From Nannocystis pusilla (GTDB taxonomy: Bacteria > Myxococcota_A > Polyangia > Nannocystales > Nannocystaceae), in assembly GCF_049060185.1 (NCBI RefSeq), contig NZ_JBMEQO010000002.1: a stretch of DNA of 64,000 nt; one strand, 5' to 3'. The stretch's first letter is position 1, and each line of letters begins with the position of its first letter. Below, piece after piece: positions 24,276 to 58,286 of the stretch. The notes beneath the pieces are model-generated. The model was not told where the DNA came from and did not search any database. It worked only from the letters and a program-made list of their open reading frames with translations. A program made the position numbers and the translations under genes.

Positions 24276-26881
24276 ATGCGTAATCGTCTGTGTGGATGGT
24301 TCTCCACGCTCGCATGCATGGGCATAGGTTTCGGCGCCTTGGCGACGACCGCATGCGATTTCGTCTTCACCTGGAACGGCGACGGGGCCCCGGTCCTGGC
24401 TCGCCACCGGACGAGCCGGACGGACCGGACACGCCGGACGACGGCATCCCCGGCTCTCTGGCGAAGGAGAAGCTCCCGCCGCTGTTCGATCGGATCACCG
24501 GCAAGCCCGTCGAGCCCGACCTGATCGTCGACAACGACGCCGCGATCGCGCTCGGCAAGGCGCTGTTTTGGGACATGCAGAGCGGCAGCGACGGCCAGGC
24601 TTGTGCCAGCTGTCACTTCTCGGCCGGCGCCGACAACCGCTCGCGCAATCAGCTGACGCCGGGTCTCATCGGCGGCAACGGCAAGTTCGATCCGACCCGG
24701 ACCGGTGGCCAGGGCCCAACCTGCAGCTCGTCGCGGGCGACTATCCATTTCACGTCTTGAAGGACCCCAAGGACCGCGACTCGAAGGTGCTCTTCGACAC
24801 CGACGACGCCACCTCCTCGCAGGGCGTCCGGCGCGCCGACTTCGAGGCCGTCAAGCCCGGCGCGCTGGACGACAAGTGTGAGACCGTCCCCGATCCGCCG
24901 TTTCAGGTCGACGGCATCAACGTGCGCCGGGTCGAGCCGCGCAACGCCCCGACCGTGATCAACGCCGCCTTCAATTTCCGCAACTTCTGGGACGGCCGGG
25001 CCAACCGCTGGTTCAACGGCGTCGACCCGTTCGGCCGCCGCAACAAGGACGCCTTCATCCTCGAGGTCAAGGGCGGCAAGCCGGTCAAGCGCAAGCTCGA
25101 GATCGTCAACGGCTCGCTCGCCTCGCAGGCTGTCGGTCCGGTGCTCAGCCCGTTCGAGGCCTCGTGTCAGGGGCGCACGCTGCCCGACGTCGGCCGCAAG
25201 CTGGTGCGCCCGCCCACCGTCCCGCTCGCGTTCCAGAAGGTCCACCCCGACGATTCGGTGCTCGGCCCGCTGGCCGCGCCGAACAAGGGCTTGGAGACCA
25301 CCTACAGGAAGATGATCGAGGCCGCCTTCGCCGCCAAGCTGTGGCAGTCGGATCAATGGTTCGACGCCGACAAGAACCTGCTGAAGAACCCCGACTCCGT
25401 CCCGGCCGACCAGCGCTTCAGCCTGATGGAGATCAACTTCAGCCTGTTCTGGGGCCTCGCTATCCAGGCCTACGAGCGCACCCTCGTCTCCGACGACAGC
25501 CCGTTCGACAAGTACCGCGACGGCCGCGATGCCAAGGCGCTCGGCAAGCGCGAGCTCGCCGGCTTCGACGTCTTCCTCAATCAGGGCAAGTGCGTCAACT
25601 GCCACAAGACCGCCATGTTCACCGGCGCCTCGACCCTGCACCTCATCGACGAAGAGGAGGAGGACGGCCTGGTCGAGCGCATGCTGATGACCGAGGAGCA
25701 CTACCACTACGGCGTGCGCACCAACCCGCCGTTCAAGGTCCTGCCATTTTCGCAATGGAAGCCCGGCAAGGGCCAGCGCAGCCTCTCGATCGACGTCGAG
25801 GCCACCCCCACCGCCAAGAAGGACGACATCGTCCCCGGCAAGGCCGTCGGCCGGATCGTCCTCAGCAAGGTCGACGACGATGCCAGTTGCACCTACAAGC
25901 CCGAGACCATGACCTTCGGCGTCGACGACTCCGCCACCCGCGACGCCCGCATCGACGTCAAGCGGATCGACGGCAAGGGTTGCCCCTCGGCGCTGCGGAT
26001 CTCCGTCCTCGACGACGTCAAGGTCGCCAACGCCTGGCTCGACTTCGTCCTCGTCTACGACGACGAGGGCACCCTCGCGTTCGTCGGCCAGGGCCCCAGC
26101 ACCCTCGTCGAGCTGCGCCAGCCGGCCCTCTACGACAACGGCTTCTACAACATCGGCGTGCGGCCGACCGCCGAGGACATCGGCGTCGGCGGCGAGGACC
26201 CGTTCGGCTTCCCGCTGTCGTTCACCGAGCAGTACGTGCAGATGCTGCTCGGCAAGGACGCGCCCGACCCGTTCGAGGTCGACCCGTGCACCTTCGACGT
26301 CCCGTGGAACATCGTCGTCGACCGCCCGCTGTTCCCCGGCGGCTTCAGGGACAAGACCGACTGCAAGGACAAGCTCAAGACCCCGACCGGCGAGCCGAAG
26401 AACAACGCCGCCAACAAGCGCTACATCCAGCGCCTGCGGACCGCCGTCGGCGGCGCCTTCAAGACCCCGACCCTGCGCAACGTCCAGCTCACGGCCCCAT
26501 ACATGCATAACGGCGGCATGTCGACCCTCGAGCAGGTCGTCGAGTTCTACAACCGCGGCGGCGACTTCCACCGCAACCGCGAGCTCGACCCCGACATCAC
26601 CTTCCTCGACCTCGACGCCGAGCAGCGCAAGGATCTGGTGCTGTTCATGCAGTCGCTCACCGACCCGAACGTCGTCTACCAGCGGGCCCCGTTCGACCAC
26701 CCGCAGCTGTTCGTCCCCAACGGCCTCGACGACGTCGACGACGAGAAGCCGGACGACGGCCGCGCCGACGAGGACCTGTTCAAGGGAGACGGCCTCGAGA
26801 TCCCGCCGTCGGCGCCGCCGGCAGCCCCAAGCCGATCCGCACCTTCCTCAACCTCGAGGGCAACGACCTGCCCCCGCCCTG
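24276..26881 (+). CDS. Large di-haem cytochrome c peroxidase-family protein (about 860 aa) with signal/lipobox; about 3 frameshifts
   Basis: Two CxxCH motifs (CASCHF, CVNCHK). CCP-like motifs (…TPTLRNVQLTAPYMHNGGMSTLEQVVEFYNRGG…). Signal MRNRLCGWFSTLACMGIGFGALATTAC. True stop at 26881 (…LNLEGNDLPPP*). Confidence 0.7.
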
Positions 26882-26901
26882 ATCGACGCTGGCTTATACA
26901 T

Positions 26902-26940
26902 GTCTGCGAGGACATGTCCTAATGACATGTCCTCGCAGAC
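26902..26940. repeat. Near-perfect 18-bp-stem hairpin built from two inverted GGACATGTCC units
   Basis: GTCTGCGAGGACATGTCC-TAA-TGACATGTCCTCGCAGAC. It lies 20 bp after the CCP stop. Confidence 0.8.
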
Positions 26941-27058
26941 ATTCGGCGTCTCGCCCCGGCCGACCGCGCGCGGCTGCTCGCCCAAGCGCACGGCGCGCGG
27001 TCCGCTCCGACCGGCGCCGGCGGGTCGCGGTCTGCGCTAGGATGGATCCGGTCCGACG

Positions 27059-28761: not shown

Positions 28762-29665
28762 TGGTCCCGCTGTTCGGCCACGGCAAGCTCGCCACCGTGG
28801 CCGCCGCCTGGACCACCGCGCGCGCCGGCGTCATGACCACCCTCGTCGTCGCCGGTGCCACCACCGTCGTCGCGGTCGCCCCCGCCAGGCCCCGGGCCGG
28901 GCCACCGCCGCGCACGTCGAGGACCTGTCCGCAAAGCCAGCTGGCTCTCGTTCCAGCGGTGACATGCCTCGAGAGACTGCCGCGCCATCGCCCGCCGACA
29001 TGTCCCGAGAGACAGCCTCTCTTCCGCCCGACGACATGTCCCGAGAGACAGCCTCTCTCTCGCATTGTCATGTCTCGAGAGACCGCCTCGCCTCCGTCCG
29101 CCGACCTGTCTCGAAAGACAGCCCCGCCCCAGCCCGCCGGCACGTCGCGAGAAACAGCCGCGCCCCGCCCGACGCTGCCGGCCCGCAGCGGCCGCCCGCC
29201 CCGCCTCCCCGTTCTCGTTCTCCCACCTCCGCGCGCGGGTCTCTGCCCTCTGGACCCGCATCCCCTGTCGCCGGGCCCCGCGGCCGACCTGTCCCCGAGG
29301 ACAGCCTCTCCCGCGCCCGTCACCCGCCCTGCCTACGAGCAGCTGCTGTCCCGAGAGACATCCGCGCGCGCCCCGCCCGCGACGACCTCGCCCTCGAGGT
29401 CGGCCTCCTCGACCGCGCCCGCGCCCGCCTCGACGCCCGCGACCCGGCAGGCGCCGCCCAGCTCCTCGACGCCCACGCGCGCCAGTTCCCGCGCGGCGCC
29501 CTCGTCGACGCCCGCGAGGCTGCCGCTGTCGAGCTCCTGTGCCTGCAAGGCCGTCCCACCGACGCCGCGACCGCCGCCCAGCGCCTGGCCGCGCGCCTGC
29601 CCGACTCGGTGCTCGCCCGCCGCTTCGAGCGCTTCGTCTGCCCCGACGACGACGAGCCGCGCTGA
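28761..29665 (+). CDS. Membrane-anchored putative anti-sigma factor; the linker is occupied by a 36-bp tandem-repeat array
   Basis: ATG overlaps the sigma stop (TGATG). TM helix …GVMTTLVVAGATTVVAVAP…. C-terminal domain …DLALEVGLLDRARARLDARDPAGAAQLLDAHARQFPRGALVDAREAAAVELLCLQGRPTDA… in another frame. Confidence 0.5.
28921..29370. repeat. 36-bp tandem-repeat array (about 5 good units at 28961..29143, then degenerate units to about 29370)
   Basis: Units: GACATGCCTCGAGAGACTGCCGCGCCATCGCCCGCC / GACATGTCCCGAGAGACAGCCTCTCTTCCGCCCGAC / GACATGTCCCGAGAGACAGCCTCTCTCTCGCATTGT / CATGTCTCGAGAGACCGCCTCGCCTCCGTCCGCC / GACCTGTCTCGAAAGACAGCCCCGCCCCAGCC…. Further copies at 29287 (GACCTGTCCCCGAGGACAGCCTCTCC) and 29346. 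Confidence 0.85.
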
Positions 29666-31564: not shown

Positions 31565-31630
31565 GAGCATGCCCTCACGGCCATGTCCTGACAGACATGT
31601 CCCCGACGACATGTCGCCGGGGACATCCAG
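31565..31630. repeat. GGACATGTCC-family repeat cluster (about 5 units, 12 to 14-bp period)
   Basis: GAGCATGCCCTCACGGCCATGTCCTGACAGACATGTCCCCGACGACATGTCGCCGGGGACATCC. Intergenic. Confidence 0.75.
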
Positions 31631-44408: not shown

Positions 44409-45504
44409 GTGCGACGCTCCTCCGCCACCGCCTCGCTGGCCGCGCTCCTCGCCTGCAGCGGCCCGCAAGTGCCCGAGCGGCCGCAGCCGCCCCCGATCTC
44501 GGAGTGCGCCGCGATCCTGGCCACGATCCCCTACGCCGCCACCGCGATGCCCCTGCAGCTCGACCGCGACGGCGCCGTCGAGCTCGACGAGTGGATCGCC
44601 CGCCTGCGCGCCGACCCGCAGGTGCGCGTCGAGCTCGGCGTCCACATGGCCGCGGCCGCGCGCCGGCGCCGACCCGCAGCAGGTCTCCGCGCAGATGCGG
44701 GCCCTCGGCGCCGACCTGCTCGCGCGCGTGCGCGCCGAGATCCGGCCCGCCGCGCGCGTCGGCCTGGTCGTCCACGGCGTCCCGGGCGGTCCTGCCGACG
44801 ATCTGTGGGCCGGCAGCTGGGTCCAGCTGCGGCGCGTCTGCCCGCCCTTCGCCCCCGACCGCGACGCCGACGGCCTCGCCGATGCCGTCGATCGCTGCCG
44901 CGACGATCCCGAGGATCACGACCGCTTCGCCGACGACGACGGCTGCCCCGATCGCGACAACGACGGCGACGGCGTCCTCGACGCCGCGCGCTGGACCGGC
45001 AGCGAGTGGATCAACTGCGACGGCAAGTTAGAGCGCGGCATCCATCGCCGCGACTGCCGCGATCAACCCGAGACCATCAACGGCGAGCAGGACGACGACG
45101 GCTGCCCCGAGGCCTTCGTCGCCGACTGCGGGCGCTTCGTCGTCCGCCTCGCCTACGACCCCGCCACCCGCGAGCTCGATCCCGAGGGCTTCCGCGAGCT
45201 CGACGCCCGGCGCAAGCAGCTCGGCCAGCGCCTCTCCACCCGCGGCGTGTTCGTGCTCGAGGGCCACACCGCCGCCGGCATGCCGCCCGCCGAGGCCCGC
45301 CAGCTCGGCCTCGACATGGCCGACAAGGCGCGCGCCGCCCTGATCGATCGCGGCTTCATCCACCACACCCTCGAGGTGCGCAGCCACGGCGCCGACCAGC
45401 CGATCGCCGACAACGACAGCGAGGAGGGCCGACGCGCCAATCATCGCGTCGAGATCGTCGCCGGCCTCGCCTGCCTCGAACCGTCGAGCCCGCTGTGCCC
45501 GTAA
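44409..45504 (+). CDS. OmpA-family lipoprotein with thrombospondin-type-3-like Asp-rich Ca-binding repeats; 1 frameshift
   Basis: Lipobox …LAALLAC. DxDxDGxxDxxD repeats. OmpA C-terminal motif …EEGRRANHRVEIV…. Confidence 0.7.
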
Positions 45505-45720
45505 GCCCGGGCAGCGCCGCGATCGCCCAAGGGACTCGCCGGGTGCGAACACCGAGGCCCTCGCTCGCCGCTTCTTCATCCACGAAGCGCCGTGCGCCGG
45601 CGCCTCGTCAGCGAGGCCCCAGCCCCGCGCGTGCGCGGCGCCGGGCGACGAATTGCCGGCAAGCGGCTGGCGCCGCGCGGCCCGCCCAGCCAAAATGGCC
45701 GCCACTCGGAGGAAGAACCC

Positions 45721-46422
45721 ATGCTCACCACCCGTTCGAGCCTCGCCCTCGCCGTGATCCTCGCTGCTGCTTGCGGCGGTGAGGCGGCCACCAAGCCCGC
45801 CCCCGTCGAGGCCGCCAAGCCGGCCGCGCCCGCGCCCGCCGACAAGCCCGTCGAGGCCGCCCCGGCCAAGCCCGCCGAGGCGCCCGTCCTCGCCGACAGC
45901 GGCCTCGGGGTCGGCGGCAAGTTCAAGCCGTTCGAGATCGTCAACTGCGACAGCGGCGAGAAGTACTGCCAGGTCTGCAAGTTCGGCGGCAGCCCCAAGA
46001 TCATGGCCGTCGGCACCATCGACGACGAGGCCTTCCGCAACGACATCAAGAACCTCGACGCCCTGGTCCAGAAGTACGGCGAGGACAAGGTCAAGGCGTT
46101 CGCGGTCATCACCGACATCAAGGACGGCAAGGCCACCACCCCGACCGGTGACCGCGCGGCCCTCGAGGCCAAGGTCAAGGCCCTGCGCACCGAGCTCGGC
46201 GTCAACATCCCGCTGGTCGTCCCCGCCGACGAGGGCGGCAAGAACGACGCCTTCGACGGCTGGTACAACATCACCAAGAGCCGCACCGTCATGTTCGCCG
46301 ACGGCCGCAACGCCGTGAAGTACTCCGGCGTCGCCCCGGCCGACCTCTCCGGCCTCAACACCGCCATCCAGGAGGTCCTCGGCGTCCCCGCCGACGCCGC
46401 CGAGCCGCCCAAGGCCGGCTGA
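45721..46422 (+). CDS. Hypothetical lipoprotein (Ala/Pro/Lys-rich linker, thioredoxin-fold-like C-terminal domain possible)
   Basis: Lipobox MLTTRSSLALAVILAAAC. Intact. Confidence 0.55.
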   Translation: MLTTRSSLALAVILAAACGGEAATKPAPVEAAKPAAPAPADKPVEAAPAKPAEAPVLADSGLGVGGKFKPFEIVNCDSGEKYCQVCKFGGSPKIMAVGTIDDEAFRNDIKNLDALVQKYGEDKVKAFAVITDIKDGKATTPTGDRAALEAKVKALRTELGVNIPLVVPADEGGKNDAFDGWYNITKSRTVMFADGRNAVKYSGVAPADLSGLNTAIQEVLGVPADAAEPPKAG

Positions 46423-46443
46423 GCGCCCGTACCTGCTGCCCTG

Positions 46444-46485
46444 AAAGACATGTCGCCCGGGCCATGCCCCTGGCGACATGTCTTT
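46444..46485. repeat. 14-bp-stem hairpin with CATG-centred arms (AAAGACATGTCGCC-N14-GGCGACATGTCTTT)
   Basis: The loop itself carries a CATGCCC half-unit. Lies 22 bp after the lipoprotein stop. Confidence 0.8.
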
Positions 46486-46519
46486 AAAGGCCCCGCACTC
46501 CTTCACGCGCGGCCCCGAG

Positions 46520-46780
46520 CGCGCCGTCCCTCGCGCCGCATCGGTGCTTCGCCCGCGCTCCGCAGCCGTCGCCTCGCTCGATCGCGCCGCCCCACGTCAG
46601 TTCGTCGCCGTCCCTCGGTCGCGCCGCCTTACGTAACTCTTCGCCTCGCTCGCGCCGCCCCAGTCCGTCGCCCGCCCTCGCTTGCGCCGCCCCGGTCGGT
46701 CCGTCGCCCGCCCTCGCTCGCGCCGCCCCAGTCCGTCCGTCGCCCGCCCTCGCTCGCGCCGCCCCACGCCCCATGTCCCT
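46520..46780. repeat. 36–40-bp GC-rich tandem repeat array x7 (GTCGCCCGCCCTCGCTCGCGCCGCCCCAGTCCGTCC)
   Basis: Direct tandem copies. The best three lie at 46657..46770; more diverged copies lie upstream. No unique spacers. Confidence 0.8.
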
Positions 46781-46850
46781 CAGGACATGCCCATCCGGCC
46801 ATGCCCATCCCGACATGTCCGTTCCGACATGTCCTCTCGCCCTCTCGCGA
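46775..46850. repeat. 14-bp tandem repeat x5 (CATGYCCNTYCSGR)
   Basis: CATGTCCCTCAGGA / CATGCCCATCCGGC / CATGCCCATCCCGA / CATGTCCGTTCCGA / CATGTCCTCTCGCC. Confidence 0.85.
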
Positions 46851-46857
46851 GCCAGCC

Positions 46858-47662
46858 TCAGGGCACCAGGTACGGCAGCCCCGGCGGCGGCGTGTAGCCG
46901 GGCAGCTCGCCGAGCGTGAGCACGGCGCGGAGCACCTGCGTCGCGGCGAACATCGCCGCCGGCACCAGCGCGACCACGAACCCGCGGATCGCCGGGATCT
47001 GGTGCGTCCCCGTGAGCGCGTTGCCGGCGACCACGAACGTCAGCAGGGTCAGCGCCCCCAGCCCGCCGAGGTAGACCGGCAGCGTCAGCTGCCCCAGGTA
47101 CAGCGGCAGGTCGAGCAGCGCGACCCCCAGCAGCGCGGGCGCCAGGGCGTAGCCGGTGGCCCGCAGGGTCGCCGCGATCGAGCGCGGCGCCCCGCCGGTC
47201 AGCGCCAGGGCCACGTGGGTGGCGATCCCCAGGCTCGCGTAGAGCAGCGGCACCCCGACCGGCGCCATCAACAGCAGCCACAGCGACAGCGCCTCGACCA
47301 GGCGCGCGTCGAACAGCGGGATCCCCTCCTGGATCGCGGCTGTCGGGCCTGCAAGGCCCAGCGTCACCAGCAGCGCCGCCCACAGCGGCAATCTCACCGT
47401 CAGCAGCAGCCGCAGCGCCGCTGCGTGGTCGACTGGTTCATGGACGTGTTGAAAGCTCCGGCGCGGCCGCAGCAGCAGCGCCGCCAGCGAGCGACGCACC
47501 CGCCAGCCCCAGCCCGGCAGCGCCGCGGCCGACCCGCCTTCGGCCTCGCGCGGCCACTCCACCGGCAGCGCGCTCCACAGCGCGCCCGAGTCGGCCAGCA
47601 GCTCGCGACCCTTCGCTTCCTGGCGGACGCGCGCCGCGCTCGCTGTTCCGGGCTCAGCCATC
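46858..47662 (-). CDS. Yip1-domain family membrane protein
   Basis: Five TM helices in the C-terminal 180 aa. Start tentatively at Met MAEPGT…. Confidence 0.5.
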
Positions 47663-47749
47663 GGCCGCGGAGTGTAGCCGACTCGGGCCGTCCTCGAACT
47701 GGCCTCGGGCACTTCCCGCGGGGCCGGGCTCGCGCGTAAGCTGACGGAC

Positions 47750-48411
47750 ATGTACCGCCCCCTCCTCGCCGCCGTGCTCGTGGTCGCTGCCGTCGGGTGT
47801 CGCAAGCGCGAGGTCGTCGCCGACATGGACTACGACGACCCCAAGGCGGCGATCGCCACCATGGAGAGCGAGGGGCGCGAGTCGTGGGAGATGCCCGACC
47901 GGATCGTCCGCGCCCTCCCGATCCCCGACAAGGGCGCAGTGATCGCCGACATCGGCGCCGGCTCCGGCTACTTCTCGCGCCGGCTGGCTCAGCAGGTCCC
48001 GACCGGCACCGTCTACGCCGTCGACATCGACGACGAGTTCCGCTCCCACATCGAGTCGCAGCGCGAGAGCTGGGGCACCCCAACATCCAGCCGCACCTCG
48101 CCTTCTACGACGACCCGGCGCTGCCCGAGAAGGCCATCGACCTGGTGTTCGTCGCCAACACCTACGCCTATCTGCGCGACCGCGTGCGCTACTTCAAGAA
48201 GGTCCACCAGGCGCTCAAGCCCGGCGGTCGCCTGGCGATCGTCGACTTCCGGCCCGACGCGCAGCCGCCGGAGAAGTTCGCACCTGACCCGAAGTACAGG
48301 CTCTCGCGCGACGCCATCGTCGCCGAGCTCGCCCAGGCCGGCTTCGCCCTCGAGCGCGAGGAGGACTTCCTCCCGCACCAATACTTCCTCATCTTCGCCA
48401 TGAAACCTTGA
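47750..48411 (+). CDS. Class I SAM-dependent methyltransferase with N-terminal lipobox; 1 frameshift
   Basis: SAM-binding motif …VIADIGAGSGYFSRRLA…. Confidence 0.65.
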
Positions 48412-50779: not shown

Positions 50780-50789
50780 CGGGGCGCGC

Positions 50790-50858
50790 GGGACATGTCC
50801 TCCGAGACATGTCCCGACGCACCCTGCCGCCGGGACATGTCCTCCGCGACATGCGCCG
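50790..50858. repeat. GGACATGTCC-family repeat cluster (4 units): two GGACATGTCCTCCG-GACATG pairs
   Basis: GGGACATGTCCTCCGAGACATGTCCCGACGCACCCTGCCGCCGGGACATGTCCTCCGCGACATGCGCC. Confidence 0.85.
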
Positions 50859-50870
50859 AACGCCCGTCCG

Positions 50871-54373: not shown

Positions 54374-54401
54374 GCCGACCTCCACCCTCGCCTGCGACGA
54401 A

Positions 54402-54438
54402 GCGCGACCCTCTTCCAAAGAGGGTCGCGCTTTCTTCG
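54402..54438 (+). terminator. Rho-independent terminator of typA
   Basis: GCGCGACCCTCTT-CCA-AAGAGGGTCGCGC gives a 13-bp stem. It is followed by TTTCTTCG, 29 bp after the stop. Confidence 0.7.
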
Positions 54439-54440
54439 CG

Positions 54441-54693
54441 CAGCGAGCGACGACAGTCATCGCAACGCAGCGCAGCGCATGACAGAGTCCTTCCCTCCGG
54501 AAGGCCGTTTTCGGGCTGCGAGCGACGCCCGCAACGCAGCCCAGCGCATGAATCGGCCTTCCGAAGGCCGTTCTTTTGGAGCTGCGAGCGACGCCCGCAA
54601 CGCAGCCCGGCGCATGACTCGGCCCTCTCGAAGGCCGCTTTTTCGAGCTGCGAGCGACGCGACGCAGCGGGGCGCATGACTGGCGTCCCGCGT
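54441..54693. repeat. About 66-bp tandem repeat x3.5, each unit with a small GC hairpin plus T-tract (terminator-like module)
   Basis: Unit: GCTGCGAGCGACGCCCGCAACGCAGCCCRGCGCATGAMTCGGCCYTCYGAAGGCCGYTYTTTTSGA (units at 54441, 54516, 54582, 54648). Confidence 0.8.
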
Positions 54694-56386: not shown

Positions 56387-57040
56387 ATGCCCCGGCCACG
56401 CGAGTTCGATCGAGACGAGGCCATCGAGCGGGCCATGGCCGTGTTCTGGGAGCACGGCTACGACGGCACCTCGACCGATCAGCTCCTCCAGGCCATGGGC
56501 ATCGGCCGCCAGAGCATGTACGCCGCCTTCGGCGACAAGCACGGCCTCTACCTCGCCGCGCTGGAGCGCTACCAGGCGCGTCAGGGCGCCGACCTGCTGG
56601 AGCGGCTGCGGGCGGTGTCCTCCCCGCTGGGCGCGATCGAGGACATCCTGCTCGGCGTGGCCGGAGACACCGCCGAGGGGCGTTCGCGCGGCTGTTTCGG
56701 CATCCAGTCGATCATCGAGATGGCCGGGCGCGACCCCGAGGTCGTGACCCTGGCCCGCAGCGCCACTGCCCTGTGCGAGGCCGCCTTCGAGCGCATGGTC
56801 GCCGAGGCCAAACGCCGCGACGAGGTCGGCGCGCACGTCGACGAGCGCAGCGCCGGCCGCTTCCTCCTCTCCACCCTGCAGGGCCTGCGGGTCAGCGCTC
56901 GCACGGGCGCCACGCCCGAGGCCCTGCGGGCCGTCGCCGGCTTCGCCATCGCCGCCCTCCGGCCGCGCCGCCCGCCGCAAGTTCTTGACTCCATGGTCCA
57001 CAACCCTACCGCTCGCGGCAGCCAGCGACGCACCGCGTGA
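56387..57040 (+). CDS. TetR/AcrR-family transcriptional regulator
   Basis: HTH motif …FWEHGYDGTSTDQLLQAMGIGRQSMYAAFGDKHGLY…. Confidence 0.8.
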   Translation: MPRPREFDRDEAIERAMAVFWEHGYDGTSTDQLLQAMGIGRQSMYAAFGDKHGLYLAALERYQARQGADLLERLRAVSSPLGAIEDILLGVAGDTAEGRSRGCFGIQSIIEMAGRDPEVVTLARSATALCEAAFERMVAEAKRRDEVGAHVDERSAGRFLLSTLQGLRVSARTGATPEALRAVAGFAIAALRPRRPPQVLDSMVHNPTARGSQRRTA

Positions 57041-57200
57041 GCGGCCCGTCGTCGACTGCATCGTCTAAAAACTCACCGCTCGCGACAGCCCGCGACGGAC
57101 CGCATGCGCGGCGTCGTCGACTGCATCCTCCACAACCCACCGTTCGTGACAGTCGACGCCCACCGCCTCGGGCGGCCGTCGTCGACAGGAGTGATTCGTC

Positions 57201-58286
57201 ATGTCTCTCGATCAGTACTACCTGCTCGGCCGCTCCGGCCTGCGCGTCAGCCCCTTCGCGCTCGGCACCTTGACCTTCGGCACCGACGGCCCGTACGGCG
57301 CCTGGGGCTCGAGCAAGCAGGCCGCGCGCGCCGTGTTCGACCGCTACCTCGCGGCCGGCGGCAACTTCATCGACACCGCCGATCTGTACACCCGCGGCAC
57401 CAGCGAGTCGCTGCTCGGCGAGTTCATCGCCGACGGCAACCGCGATCGCCTCGTGCTCACCAGCAAGTACAGCTACAACCTCGCCGAGCGCGACCCCAAC
57501 GCCGGCGGCAACGGGCGCAAGAACATGATCCGCGCGCTCGAGGCCTCGCTGAAGCGCCTGCGGACCGACTACCTCGATCTCTACCTGCTTCACACCTGGG
57601 ACCGGATCACCCCCGCCGAGGAGGTCGTGCGCGCCTTCGACGACCTCGTGCGCGCCGGCAAGATCCGCTACGCCGGCCTGTCCGACGTCCCCGCCTGGTA
57701 CGCCGCGCGGGCCCACACCTACGCCGAGGCCCACGCCCTCGCGCCGATCGTCAACCTGCAGCTGCAGTACTCGCTGGTCGAGCGCGGCATCGAGGCCGAG
57801 TTCACCTCGCTCGCCACCAACCTCGGCATGGGCATCACCGCCTGGAGTCCGCTCGCCAGCGGCCTCCTGTCGGGCAAGTACCGGCCCAACAGCGACGGCG
57901 GCAGCGGCCGGCTCAGCACCGGCACCGGCAAGTCGCTCAGCCTCTTCACCGAGCGCAACTGGCAGATCGTCGGCGCGCTCGAGGCCGTCGCCGCCGAGCT
58001 CGGGCGCAGCATGGCCCAGGTCGCGCTGCAGTGGGTGCTCACGCGTCCGGGCGTCACCTCGGTGATCCTCGGCGCCACGCGGCCCGAGCAGCTCGAGGAC
58101 AACCTCGGCGCGCTCGACCTCCGGATCCCGCCCGAGCTGCTGCGCCGCCTCGACGAGGCCAGCACGCCGCCCCTCACCACCCCGTACGCGATGTTCGGCG
58201 ACCGCTACCAGGCCGCAGTGCACGGCGCCGCAGTCAGCGATCGCCCGCCCGCCTTTGCCCCGCCGGTCCGCGTCAGCCTCGGCTGA
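57201..58286 (+). CDS. Aldo/keto reductase (AKR family oxidoreductase)
   Basis: Intact. AGGAG SD 8 nt upstream. …GTLTFGTD…, …NFIDTADLYTRGTSE…, …IRYAGLSDVPAW…. Confidence 0.85.
   Translation: MSLDQYYLLGRSGLRVSPFALGTLTFGTDGPYGAWGSSKQAARAVFDRYLAAGGNFIDTADLYTRGTSESLLGEFIADGNRDRLVLTSKYSYNLAERDPNAGGNGRKNMIRALEASLKRLRTDYLDLYLLHTWDRITPAEEVVRAFDDLVRAGKIRYAGLSDVPAWYAARAHTYAEAHALAPIVNLQLQYSLVERGIEAEFTSLATNLGMGITAWSPLASGLLSGKYRPNSDGGSGRLSTGTGKSLSLFTERNWQIVGALEAVAAELGRSMAQVALQWVLTRPGVTSVILGATRPEQLEDNLGALDLRIPPELLRRLDEASTPPLTTPYAMFGDRYQAAVHGAAVSDRPPAFAPPVRVSLG

Follow-up and report, generated by a model that had tools for sequence, protein, structure and literature searches.

The subject of this analysis is the gap between two convergent open reading frames (ORFs) of Nannocystis pusilla, which lies within a stretch of 64,000 nucleotides of contig NZ_JBMEQO010000002.1; the whole of this stretch was analysed and is referred to here as the window. 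The gap is 435 bp in length (46423-46857), separates a gene for a lipoprotein-like protein from a gene for a YIP1-family membrane protein, and consists of repeats for nearly all of its length in a window of 72-73% GC. Three repeat blocks are present, namely a long hairpin, a GC-rich minisatellite with a period of 36 bp and an array of five 14-bp units (Table 1), all of them far beyond chance and at about the positions at which they had been described in an earlier reading made from the letters of the sequence without database searches (hereafter the sequence-only reading). The perfect hairpin with a 14-bp stem which that reading reported was recovered, as were its five copies of a 14-mer, although the 14-mer array ends near 46837 and not at 46850. 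Its 36-mer block is likewise a real tandem array, but the count of seven copies was generous (5.8 according to Tandem Repeats Finder, TRF) and the units measure 27-36 bp, not 36-40 bp. What had been missed is that the hairpin is itself composed of three units of the same 14-bp family which forms the array at the opposite end of the gap.

Table 1. Features of the convergent gap and its flanks, in positions of the 64,000-nucleotide window
Feature	Position	Strand	Basis and remarks
Lipoprotein-like ORF, 233 amino acids (upstream flank)	45721-46422	+	Translation; TGA stop at 46420-46422
Long conserved hairpin	46444-46485		Folds on both strands; arms at 46444-46457 and 46472-46485
Non-repeated short linker (GGCCCCGCACTCCTTCACGCGCGGCCCCGAGCGCGCCG...)	46486-46526		Alignment; recognisable in other N. 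pusilla-group genomes
GC-rich minisatellite, 36-bp period	46527-46768		TRF and unit parse; degenerate stretch of ~42 bp at 46527-46568
Five head-to-tail 14-bp units	46769-46837		CATG at 46772, 46786, 46800, 46814 and 46828; exact 14-bp phase
Small GC hairpin CTCGC-N6-GCGAG, between the 14-mer array and the YIP1 stop	46836-46851		Predicted in folds of both strands
YIP1-family membrane protein gene (convergent, downstream flank)	46858-47661	-	Translation; stop at 46858-46860

The hairpin starts 21 nt after the stop codon of the lipoprotein gene and comprises 14 contiguous perfect pairs and an inner stem of 4 bp. Its predicted RNA fold reached -38 kcal/mol on the + strand (z -7.9, with none of 200 shuffles as good) and -42 kcal/mol on the - strand (z -6.4), and the fold of the DNA gave a z of -6.95. 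The structure is flanked by AAAG on one side and CTTTAAAGG on the other and consists of three 14-bp CATG units, with GACATGTC at 46447 and again at 46475 and CCATGCCC midway; the two spacers between the units, GCCCGGG and CCCTGGC, are complementary to each other and so lengthen the stem.

A hairpin at the same site was found in three further N. pusilla genomes (Na p29, CP185339.1 and JBMPIV01), in Nannocystis sp. RBIL2, in N. punicea, N. exedens, N. radixulma and N. bainbridge, and in two metagenomic relatives, with a distance from the stop codon of 18-25 nt across the genomes which carry it. In an alignment of eight orthologues all 15 of the predicted pairs were kept, two basal pairs having changed on both sides. 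A T-rich run follows the stem in most of the relatives (for example TTTTTTGAGG, TTTTTTAAAGG and TCTTTTTAAAGG); a consensus terminator scan accepts the orthologue of N. radixulma, with an 11-bp stem followed by TTTTTT, and at the N. punicea locus the scan flags a sub-stem of 6 pairs with a T-run. Judged from these features of its sequence, the element is most likely an intrinsic-type, possibly bidirectional, terminator of the lipoprotein gene or else a stabiliser of its 3' end. The likeness to known intrinsic terminators lies in a stable GC-rich stem-loop at this distance past a stop codon, conserved in position across species, and the likeness to bidirectional ones in an A-rich run before the stem and a T-rich run after it, which together would give a hairpin followed by a U-run on both strands. 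It differs from them in that the U-tract in the window is short (UUUAAAGG), the stem is unusually long (14+4 bp) and the whole is made of units of a dispersed repeat. In N. exedens DSM 71 (locus L003, 6699-6774) the site has a head-to-tail duplication of its own, two copies of 38 bp with 89% identity, which takes in the hairpin's left arm together with the flank on the side of the stop codon.

At the other end of the gap, 24 nt past the stop codon of YIP1, is the five-unit array, whose neighbouring units are predicted to be able to pair into hairpins on either strand. The fold of the array as RNA gave -42.1 kcal/mol (z -4.3) on the - strand, which is the sense strand of YIP1, and -30.2 kcal/mol (z -5.2) on the + strand. 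Arrays with 3-6 phased CATG sites occupy the same position in N. pusilla Na p29, RBIL2, N. exedens, N. punicea and loci L059-L061, and in N. bainbridge and N. radixulma 2-5 CATG sites are fused with the units of the hairpin. The array may give the YIP1 transcript the same service at its 3' end as that suggested for the hairpin at the end of the lipoprotein transcript. The sequence at the YIP1 stop itself (46856-46865, CCTCAGGGCA) is similar to a unit boundary of the 14-mer array (46778-46787, CCTCAGGACA); TCAGGG also terminates the YIP1 gene in distant relatives which do not have the arrays.

The family to which both blocks belong has as its consensus a 10-bp palindrome, GGACATGYCC, with four variable bases, and the CATG within it is invariant. 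The 64-kb window contains 48 phased units; spacings of 14, 28 and 42 bp from one CATG to another were counted 30, 15 and 12 times where the background is 1-2, and GACATGTC was observed 23 times against 0.67 expected. Extrapolation from the window would give roughly 10^4 units per 12-Mb genome. Positions of the arrays relative to genes were taken from a gene map which is crude, being drawn from third-position GC. On this map nine of the ten arrays with at least three units reach into the first 80 nt past a stop codon, against an expectation of 16% (P ~7e-7). Of the gaps on the same map, those with arrays are 8 of the 12 convergent, 1 of the 10 divergent and 4 of the 30 tandem ones; the arrays within genes amount to three two-site pairs, which are chance-like. 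The positions of the arrays are kept across six other genomes, with copy numbers that differ from 2 to 6. All cultured Nannocystis species and their close metagenomic relatives carry the family, and the metagenome-assembled genomes (MAGs) of more distant Nannocystis and Nannocystaceae do not have it; in these the same convergent gene pair is only ~8-17 bp apart. A search with a three-unit pattern matched 31 metagenome contigs, all of 67-77% GC. A two-unit pattern gave in addition two isolated matches to viral contigs of 62-66% GC; these were without 14-bp periodicity and were therefore treated as chance.

Other long hairpins made of CATG units with complementary spacers are found at gene ends elsewhere in the window (26900-26942, 31597-31626 and 50782-50865), and they include a perfect 19-bp stem which overlaps the stop codon of the ORF at 24757-26922. 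Over the window as a whole (1-64000) the GC skew is negative in every 2-kb bin, from -0.02 to -0.23, the + strand being 41% C and 31% G, and on the + strand the 14-bp unit is better preserved in its right half (YCC) than in its left (GGA).

The closest known counterparts of this family are REP (repetitive extragenic palindromic) elements and the bacterial interspersed mosaic elements (BIMEs), with which it shares short GC-rich palindromic units confined to intergenic DNA, a very high copy number, a location mostly downstream of genes in convergent or tandem gaps, clustering by which larger hairpins can form, and a lineage-specific, vertically inherited distribution with turnover of copy number. 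REPs have been reported to act as terminators or as stabilisers of mRNA in 3' untranslated regions (UTRs) (PMC3733652; bioRxiv 10.64898/2026.03.23.713779). However, the unit described here is 14 bp long (a two-unit hairpin measures 24 nt) as opposed to the 20-40 bp of REPs (PMC3733652), and its 10-bp core is perfectly symmetric; the units mainly follow each other head to tail at a fixed 14-bp phase and are not arranged as inverted pairs; and there is no unpaired GTAG/CGTC tag, nor any conserved tetranucleotide outside the core, the long hairpin having AAAG/CTTT as its flanks. Among those ORFs of the window which were scanned, none was recognised as a transposase, in a survey which included no search aimed at genes for REP-associated tyrosine transposases (RAYTs) in the genome. 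As the REP tag is missing and the head-to-tail architecture is unusual, we do not class the family as REP, even if by analogy it appears to behave like one.

A search of the literature for intergenic, palindromic or REP repeats in Nannocystis and the myxobacteria, and for the motif itself, returned nothing relevant. The 14-bp family thus appears to be undescribed in the searchable literature, and it is here, rather than in the 36-mer, that the novelty appears to sit. A more tentative possibility, to which we would give clearly less than even weight, is that this is a core-Nannocystis family without the tag of a REP which is maintained or spread by a sequence-specific factor (an HUH-type nuclease or a dimeric DNA-binding protein), which seeds minisatellites such as the 36-mer, and which may have expanded a gap of ~10 bp to as much as 463 bp within one genus.

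The minisatellite that lies between the two hairpin-forming blocks was detected by TRF with a period of 36, 5.8 copies, 76% matches and a score of 188 over 46567-46768. Its units start at 46569, 46605, 46641, 46668, 46704 and 46740, with lengths of 36, 36, 27, 36, 36 and ~28 bp, the last being truncated; a 27-mer core, with up to 3 mismatches allowed, occurs three times against 0.00 expected. The units abut directly, the distances from start to start being 36, 36, 27, 36 and 36, and the absence of spacers bears out the view of the sequence-only reading that this is no CRISPR array. Secondary structure and G-quadruplex or i-motif potential, for which the same reading had proposed a check, were not found: in both RNA and DNA folds the array is less structured than shuffles (z +1.1 to +2.9), and it contains no canonical motif (at least four runs of at least three G or C, with loops of 1-7 nt). 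Relaxed patterns appear only with loops of 12-15 nt, and such patterns occur 40-63 times on the - strand of the window. Searches of Rfam, at the gathering thresholds for the whole window and at E<=5 over 46300-47000, yielded chance matches only, and these were rejected (mir-1295, whose 25.8 bits fall short of the threshold of 100, and a flavivirus exoribonuclease-resistant RNA, xrRNA); the window has no tRNA genes.

Within the sequence searched the 36-mer is also specific to this locus: its core was found nowhere else in 572 kb of Nannocystis-type sequence, and its pattern had no match in the metagenome contigs of the Joint Genome Institute (JGI). A structured platform with multiple protein-binding sites, as suggested in the sequence-only reading, is difficult to reconcile with an array which is unstructured, locus-specific and dispensable in close relatives, and a 36-mer unique to this locus and absent or variable among such relatives is the very outcome which that reading had named as counting against its own proposal.

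The window units that precede the truncated one (36, 36, 27, 36 and 36 bp) all have lengths that are multiples of three, and a long ORF on the + strand (46450-47739) spans the island, so that a repeat peptide might be considered here, as might a structured non-coding RNA (ncRNA) or a degenerate CRISPR array. Long antisense ORFs are a typical artefact of high-GC DNA, and the ORF in question lies antisense to YIP1. The unit lengths in N. pusilla Na p29 are 27, 38, 31, 38, 32 and 36, by which any reading frame is broken and the coding proposal effectively refuted; there is furthermore no Rfam match above noise, no fold, no spacer and no promoter-like site. We regard the probability of any explanation of this kind as negligible.

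The composition of the array raises another alternative. Rho-utilisation (rut) sites are C-rich, G-poor, unstructured stretches of RNA, and the + strand of the array, with 52.5% C and 26% G over 242 nt and an RNA fold worse than that of shuffles (z +2.25), would fit such a description; the array could in that case back up the terminator of the lipoprotein gene and block antisense transcription into YIP1. One REP element of E. coli has been reported to terminate transcription in a partly Rho-dependent manner (bioRxiv 10.64898/2026.03.23.713779), which may be counted in favour of the proposal. However, the + strand of the whole window is C-rich in any case (41% C, 31% G), and the array is missing in one genome of N. 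pusilla as well as in every other species, its copies ranging from 0 to 6.6. A rut tract is by analogy conceivable but, in our judgement, very unlikely.

Length polymorphism among strains, for which the sequence-only reading had proposed a comparison, was found across four N. pusilla-group genomes. TRF counted no copies of the 36-bp unit in CP185339.1, where the spacer between the genes measures 189 bp, 2.4 copies in JBMPIV01 (323 bp), 5.8 in the window (435 bp) and 6.6 in Na p29 (463 bp), the last of which also has a 69-bp higher-order repeat in 2.8 copies; the Na p29 allele of the 36-mer was reproduced by an independent short-read assembly. The array is absent from RBIL2, from the metagenomic relative L061 and from all other species examined, and the DNA flanking the gap is 95-98% identical among the N. 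pusilla-group genomes. Units on the left-hand side are common to strains (W1 against J1/J2, 89%), and units on the right-hand side are near-identical within a strain (W4-W5, 92%; N2-N4, 92%; N3-N5, 94%); in the window the three final units differ very little from one another, and those before them have diverged. Shared units on the left together with strain-specific duplicates on the right fit a history of repeated slippage or unequal exchange.

The 36-mer is therefore a strain-variable minisatellite, with head-to-tail units beyond chance and a copy number variable among strains, and it is probably neutral. It is comparable to the variable number tandem repeat (VNTR) minisatellites employed in multiple-locus VNTR analysis (MLVA) in that head-to-tail copies vary in number between strains within a non-coding spacer, the youngest copies being near-identical and the older ones degenerate, and one strain having the 69-bp higher-order repeat. 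It differs from them in being extremely GC-rich and strand-asymmetric, and in lying between two hairpin-forming blocks of another family, from one unit of which it is probably derived.

This last point concerns the origin of the array, which had been described in the sequence-only reading as a second, unrelated minisatellite whose units lack the CATG core. It is true that no CATG is present in the units of the window; however, each of them has CCCCA(C/-)GTC at a fixed register, one unit of Na p29 contains an intact CCCCATGTC, and the last unit runs directly into the first 14-mer. The units thus seem to embed a decayed CATG unit, and it is doubtful that the two repeats are unrelated. The array probably arose, as far as can be judged from modest resemblances in sequence, by duplication of a segment that spanned the left edge of the 14-mer array. 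A derivation from the single-copy sequence of N. exedens was also considered and was not significant (local alignment score 21 against 20.9 +/- 3.2 for shuffles). Elsewhere in the window, at 28961-29171, there is a second array with a 36-bp period (5.9 copies, with a 106-bp higher-order repeat in 1.9 copies) whose unit consists of GACATGTC followed by CGAGAGACAGCC; compared by eye, its units are unlike those of 46527-46768 outside the CATG core, and kinship between the two arrays was rejected.

The remainder of the gap is no less changeable. The length of the spacer ranges from 85 bp, where only 14-mers are present, to 463 bp, and it reaches 1422 bp in N. punicea; in strain FL3 of this species (locus L002, 7132-7869) the hairpin and the 14-mer array have an inserted ORF with ankyrin repeats (Pfam Ank, E 1e-15) between them. 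The suggestion in the sequence-only reading of a slippage or recombination hotspot agrees well with the 36-mer copy numbers of 0, 2.4, 5.8 and 6.6, the variation of the 14-mer among species, the duplication in N. exedens and the insertion in N. punicea, and the comparison supports the gap as a hotspot of rearrangement across the genus.

The explanation we favour, of REP-like hairpin units at the 3' ends of both genes and a minisatellite produced by slippage, has several observations to contend with. The tail of the hairpin in the window is TTTAAAGG, with UUUAAAGG as a weak and short U-tract, and it failed a simple terminator scan, while the five-unit array is without any U-tract. The match of the 36-mer to the CATG unit is modest, with scores of 7-9 against a background of 4.9 +/- 1.15 for units that are not independent of each other, and an origin of the 36-mer from the single-copy sequence of RBIL2 was tried and was not significant (local alignment 25 against 18.5 +/- 3.3 for shuffles). 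Units tend towards CATGCCC in keeping with the C-rich + strand, regardless of the direction of the adjacent gene, a bias which looks like mutational skew rather than selection at the level of RNA. Lastly, the complementarity between adjacent units does not exceed that between units paired at random (z -0.6 to +1.1). All of these weigh against the favoured explanation. Scans for promoter and terminator consensus sequences over 45500-48000 gave no matches, and no compensatory pairing was found between neighbouring 14-mers. As neighbouring units show no extra complementarity, the constraint is on the consensus sequence and not demonstrably on pairing.

A constraint of this nature is what would be expected if the arrays and the hairpin units were phased sites for a dimeric, sequence-specific protein peculiar to Nannocystis that binds DNA (a boundary factor, for example, or one associated with the nucleoid), for which 3-6 sites would create a platform at gene ends. 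The 10-bp palindromic core with its invariant CATG, the strict 14-bp phase, by which three units come to 42 bp or about four helical turns, and the presence of 48 units in 64 kb are all compatible with such a role. However, the arrays are located at 3' ends and in convergent gaps and not at promoters, many of the units are strongly degenerate, the family is absent in sister lineages with the same genes, and no candidate protein was identified; nor would the proposal apply to the 36-mer, which is locus-specific and dispensable. We consider it rather improbable.

The lack of compensatory covariation between neighbouring units could equally be taken as a sign that the entire island is selfish or neutral, the 14-bp units being remnants of a small mobile or self-expanding element which is tolerated at the 3' ends of genes, and the hairpin being kept through recent shared ancestry only. 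The ancestral gap of 8-17 bp had no hairpin and the gene pair works in this form in distant relatives; moreover, the family is lineage-specific, its copy numbers change freely and the decay of its units tracks the compositional skew of the strand. Against this, eight genomes in which the rest of the surrounding spacer cannot be aligned or is missing retain the stem, and in two of its pairs both sides have changed. Complementary spacers are found within the hairpin but not in the tandem arrays, and the long-hairpin form recurs at other stop codons. In a genome of 73% GC, the stem is followed by T-rich tails. A wholly selfish or neutral island is thus unlikely in our estimation, if deserving of some weight.

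The lipoprotein-like ORF has a high third-position codon GC and an N-terminus (MLTTRSSLALAVILAAAC) which resembles a signal peptide with a lipobox; it had no Pfam match, and its orthologues, with 53-98% identity, were found in 17 loci of Nannocystis and Myxococcota, the 98% being that of N. pusilla Na p29. In N. pusilla CP185339.1 (locus L059, 2836-3696) a frameshift after about residue 157 carries this ORF on across the repeat island to give a product of 286 amino acids, which is either an assembly indel or a pseudogene. The YIP1-family gene encodes 267 amino acids from an ATG at 47661, or 297 if the start is placed at 47751, and the shorter product is identical to NCBI WP_421059631.1 from N. 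pusilla. Homologues of the gene carry Pfam PF04893 (Yip1) and the NCBI name 'YIP1 family protein'; the protein of the window itself had no Pfam match at E<=0.01.

Other repeats are to be found further along the window. At 54493-54660 a 66-bp tandem repeat in 2.6 copies, upstream of an ORF starting at about 54860, has in each unit a GGCCTTCCGAAGGCC hairpin followed by a T-run and looks like a terminator in tandem copies; at 56997-57186 a 67-bp tandem repeat in 2.9 copies lies directly upstream of an ORF starting at 57201; and at 54400-54432 there is a perfect 15-bp inverted repeat, AAGCGCGACCCTCTT / AAGAGGGTCGCGCTT, with a loop of 3 nt.

On balance, then, it is probable, if by no means certain, that the island combines REP-like hairpin units at the 3' ends of two genes with a minisatellite that arose by slippage and is probably neutral. 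The layout of the gap, the conserved hairpin, the polymorphism in copy number, the link of the 14-bp family with the 3' ends of genes and its confinement to one clade are observed; termination or stabilisation, slippage as the mechanism and neutrality are inferred from them. An ancestral gap of about 10-20 bp would have grown by gathering these two kinds of repeat DNA. Three 14-bp units with complementary spacers would have come to form the long hairpin just past the lipoprotein stop, to serve as a terminator or stabiliser, and five tandem units past the YIP1 stop would do the same job for the YIP1 transcript by means of hairpins between units. The 36-bp minisatellite may then have arisen in the N. 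pusilla group via tandem duplication, whether by replication slippage or by unequal exchange, of a segment which probably held the leftmost CATG unit; copies would have been gained and lost since, and the array, placed between two hairpin-forming blocks, is most likely neutral spacer DNA.

The 36-mer array is accordingly to be seen as an ordinary polymorphic minisatellite, which could be of use as a polymerase chain reaction (PCR) marker for the typing of N. pusilla strains. The island as a whole presents an example of the stepwise growth of a spacer, from ~10 bp to 85-463 bp, by invasion of 14-bp palindromic units and then by slippage between hairpin-forming blocks. Within the window, most ends of convergent genes carry the 14-bp family; should the family indeed bring about termination or stabilisation of transcripts, it would be an aid to the annotation of operons and 3' UTRs and to expression engineering in Nannocystis, a genus which is studied for its natural products, and, if this holds true, the family would widen the known architectures of REP-like elements.

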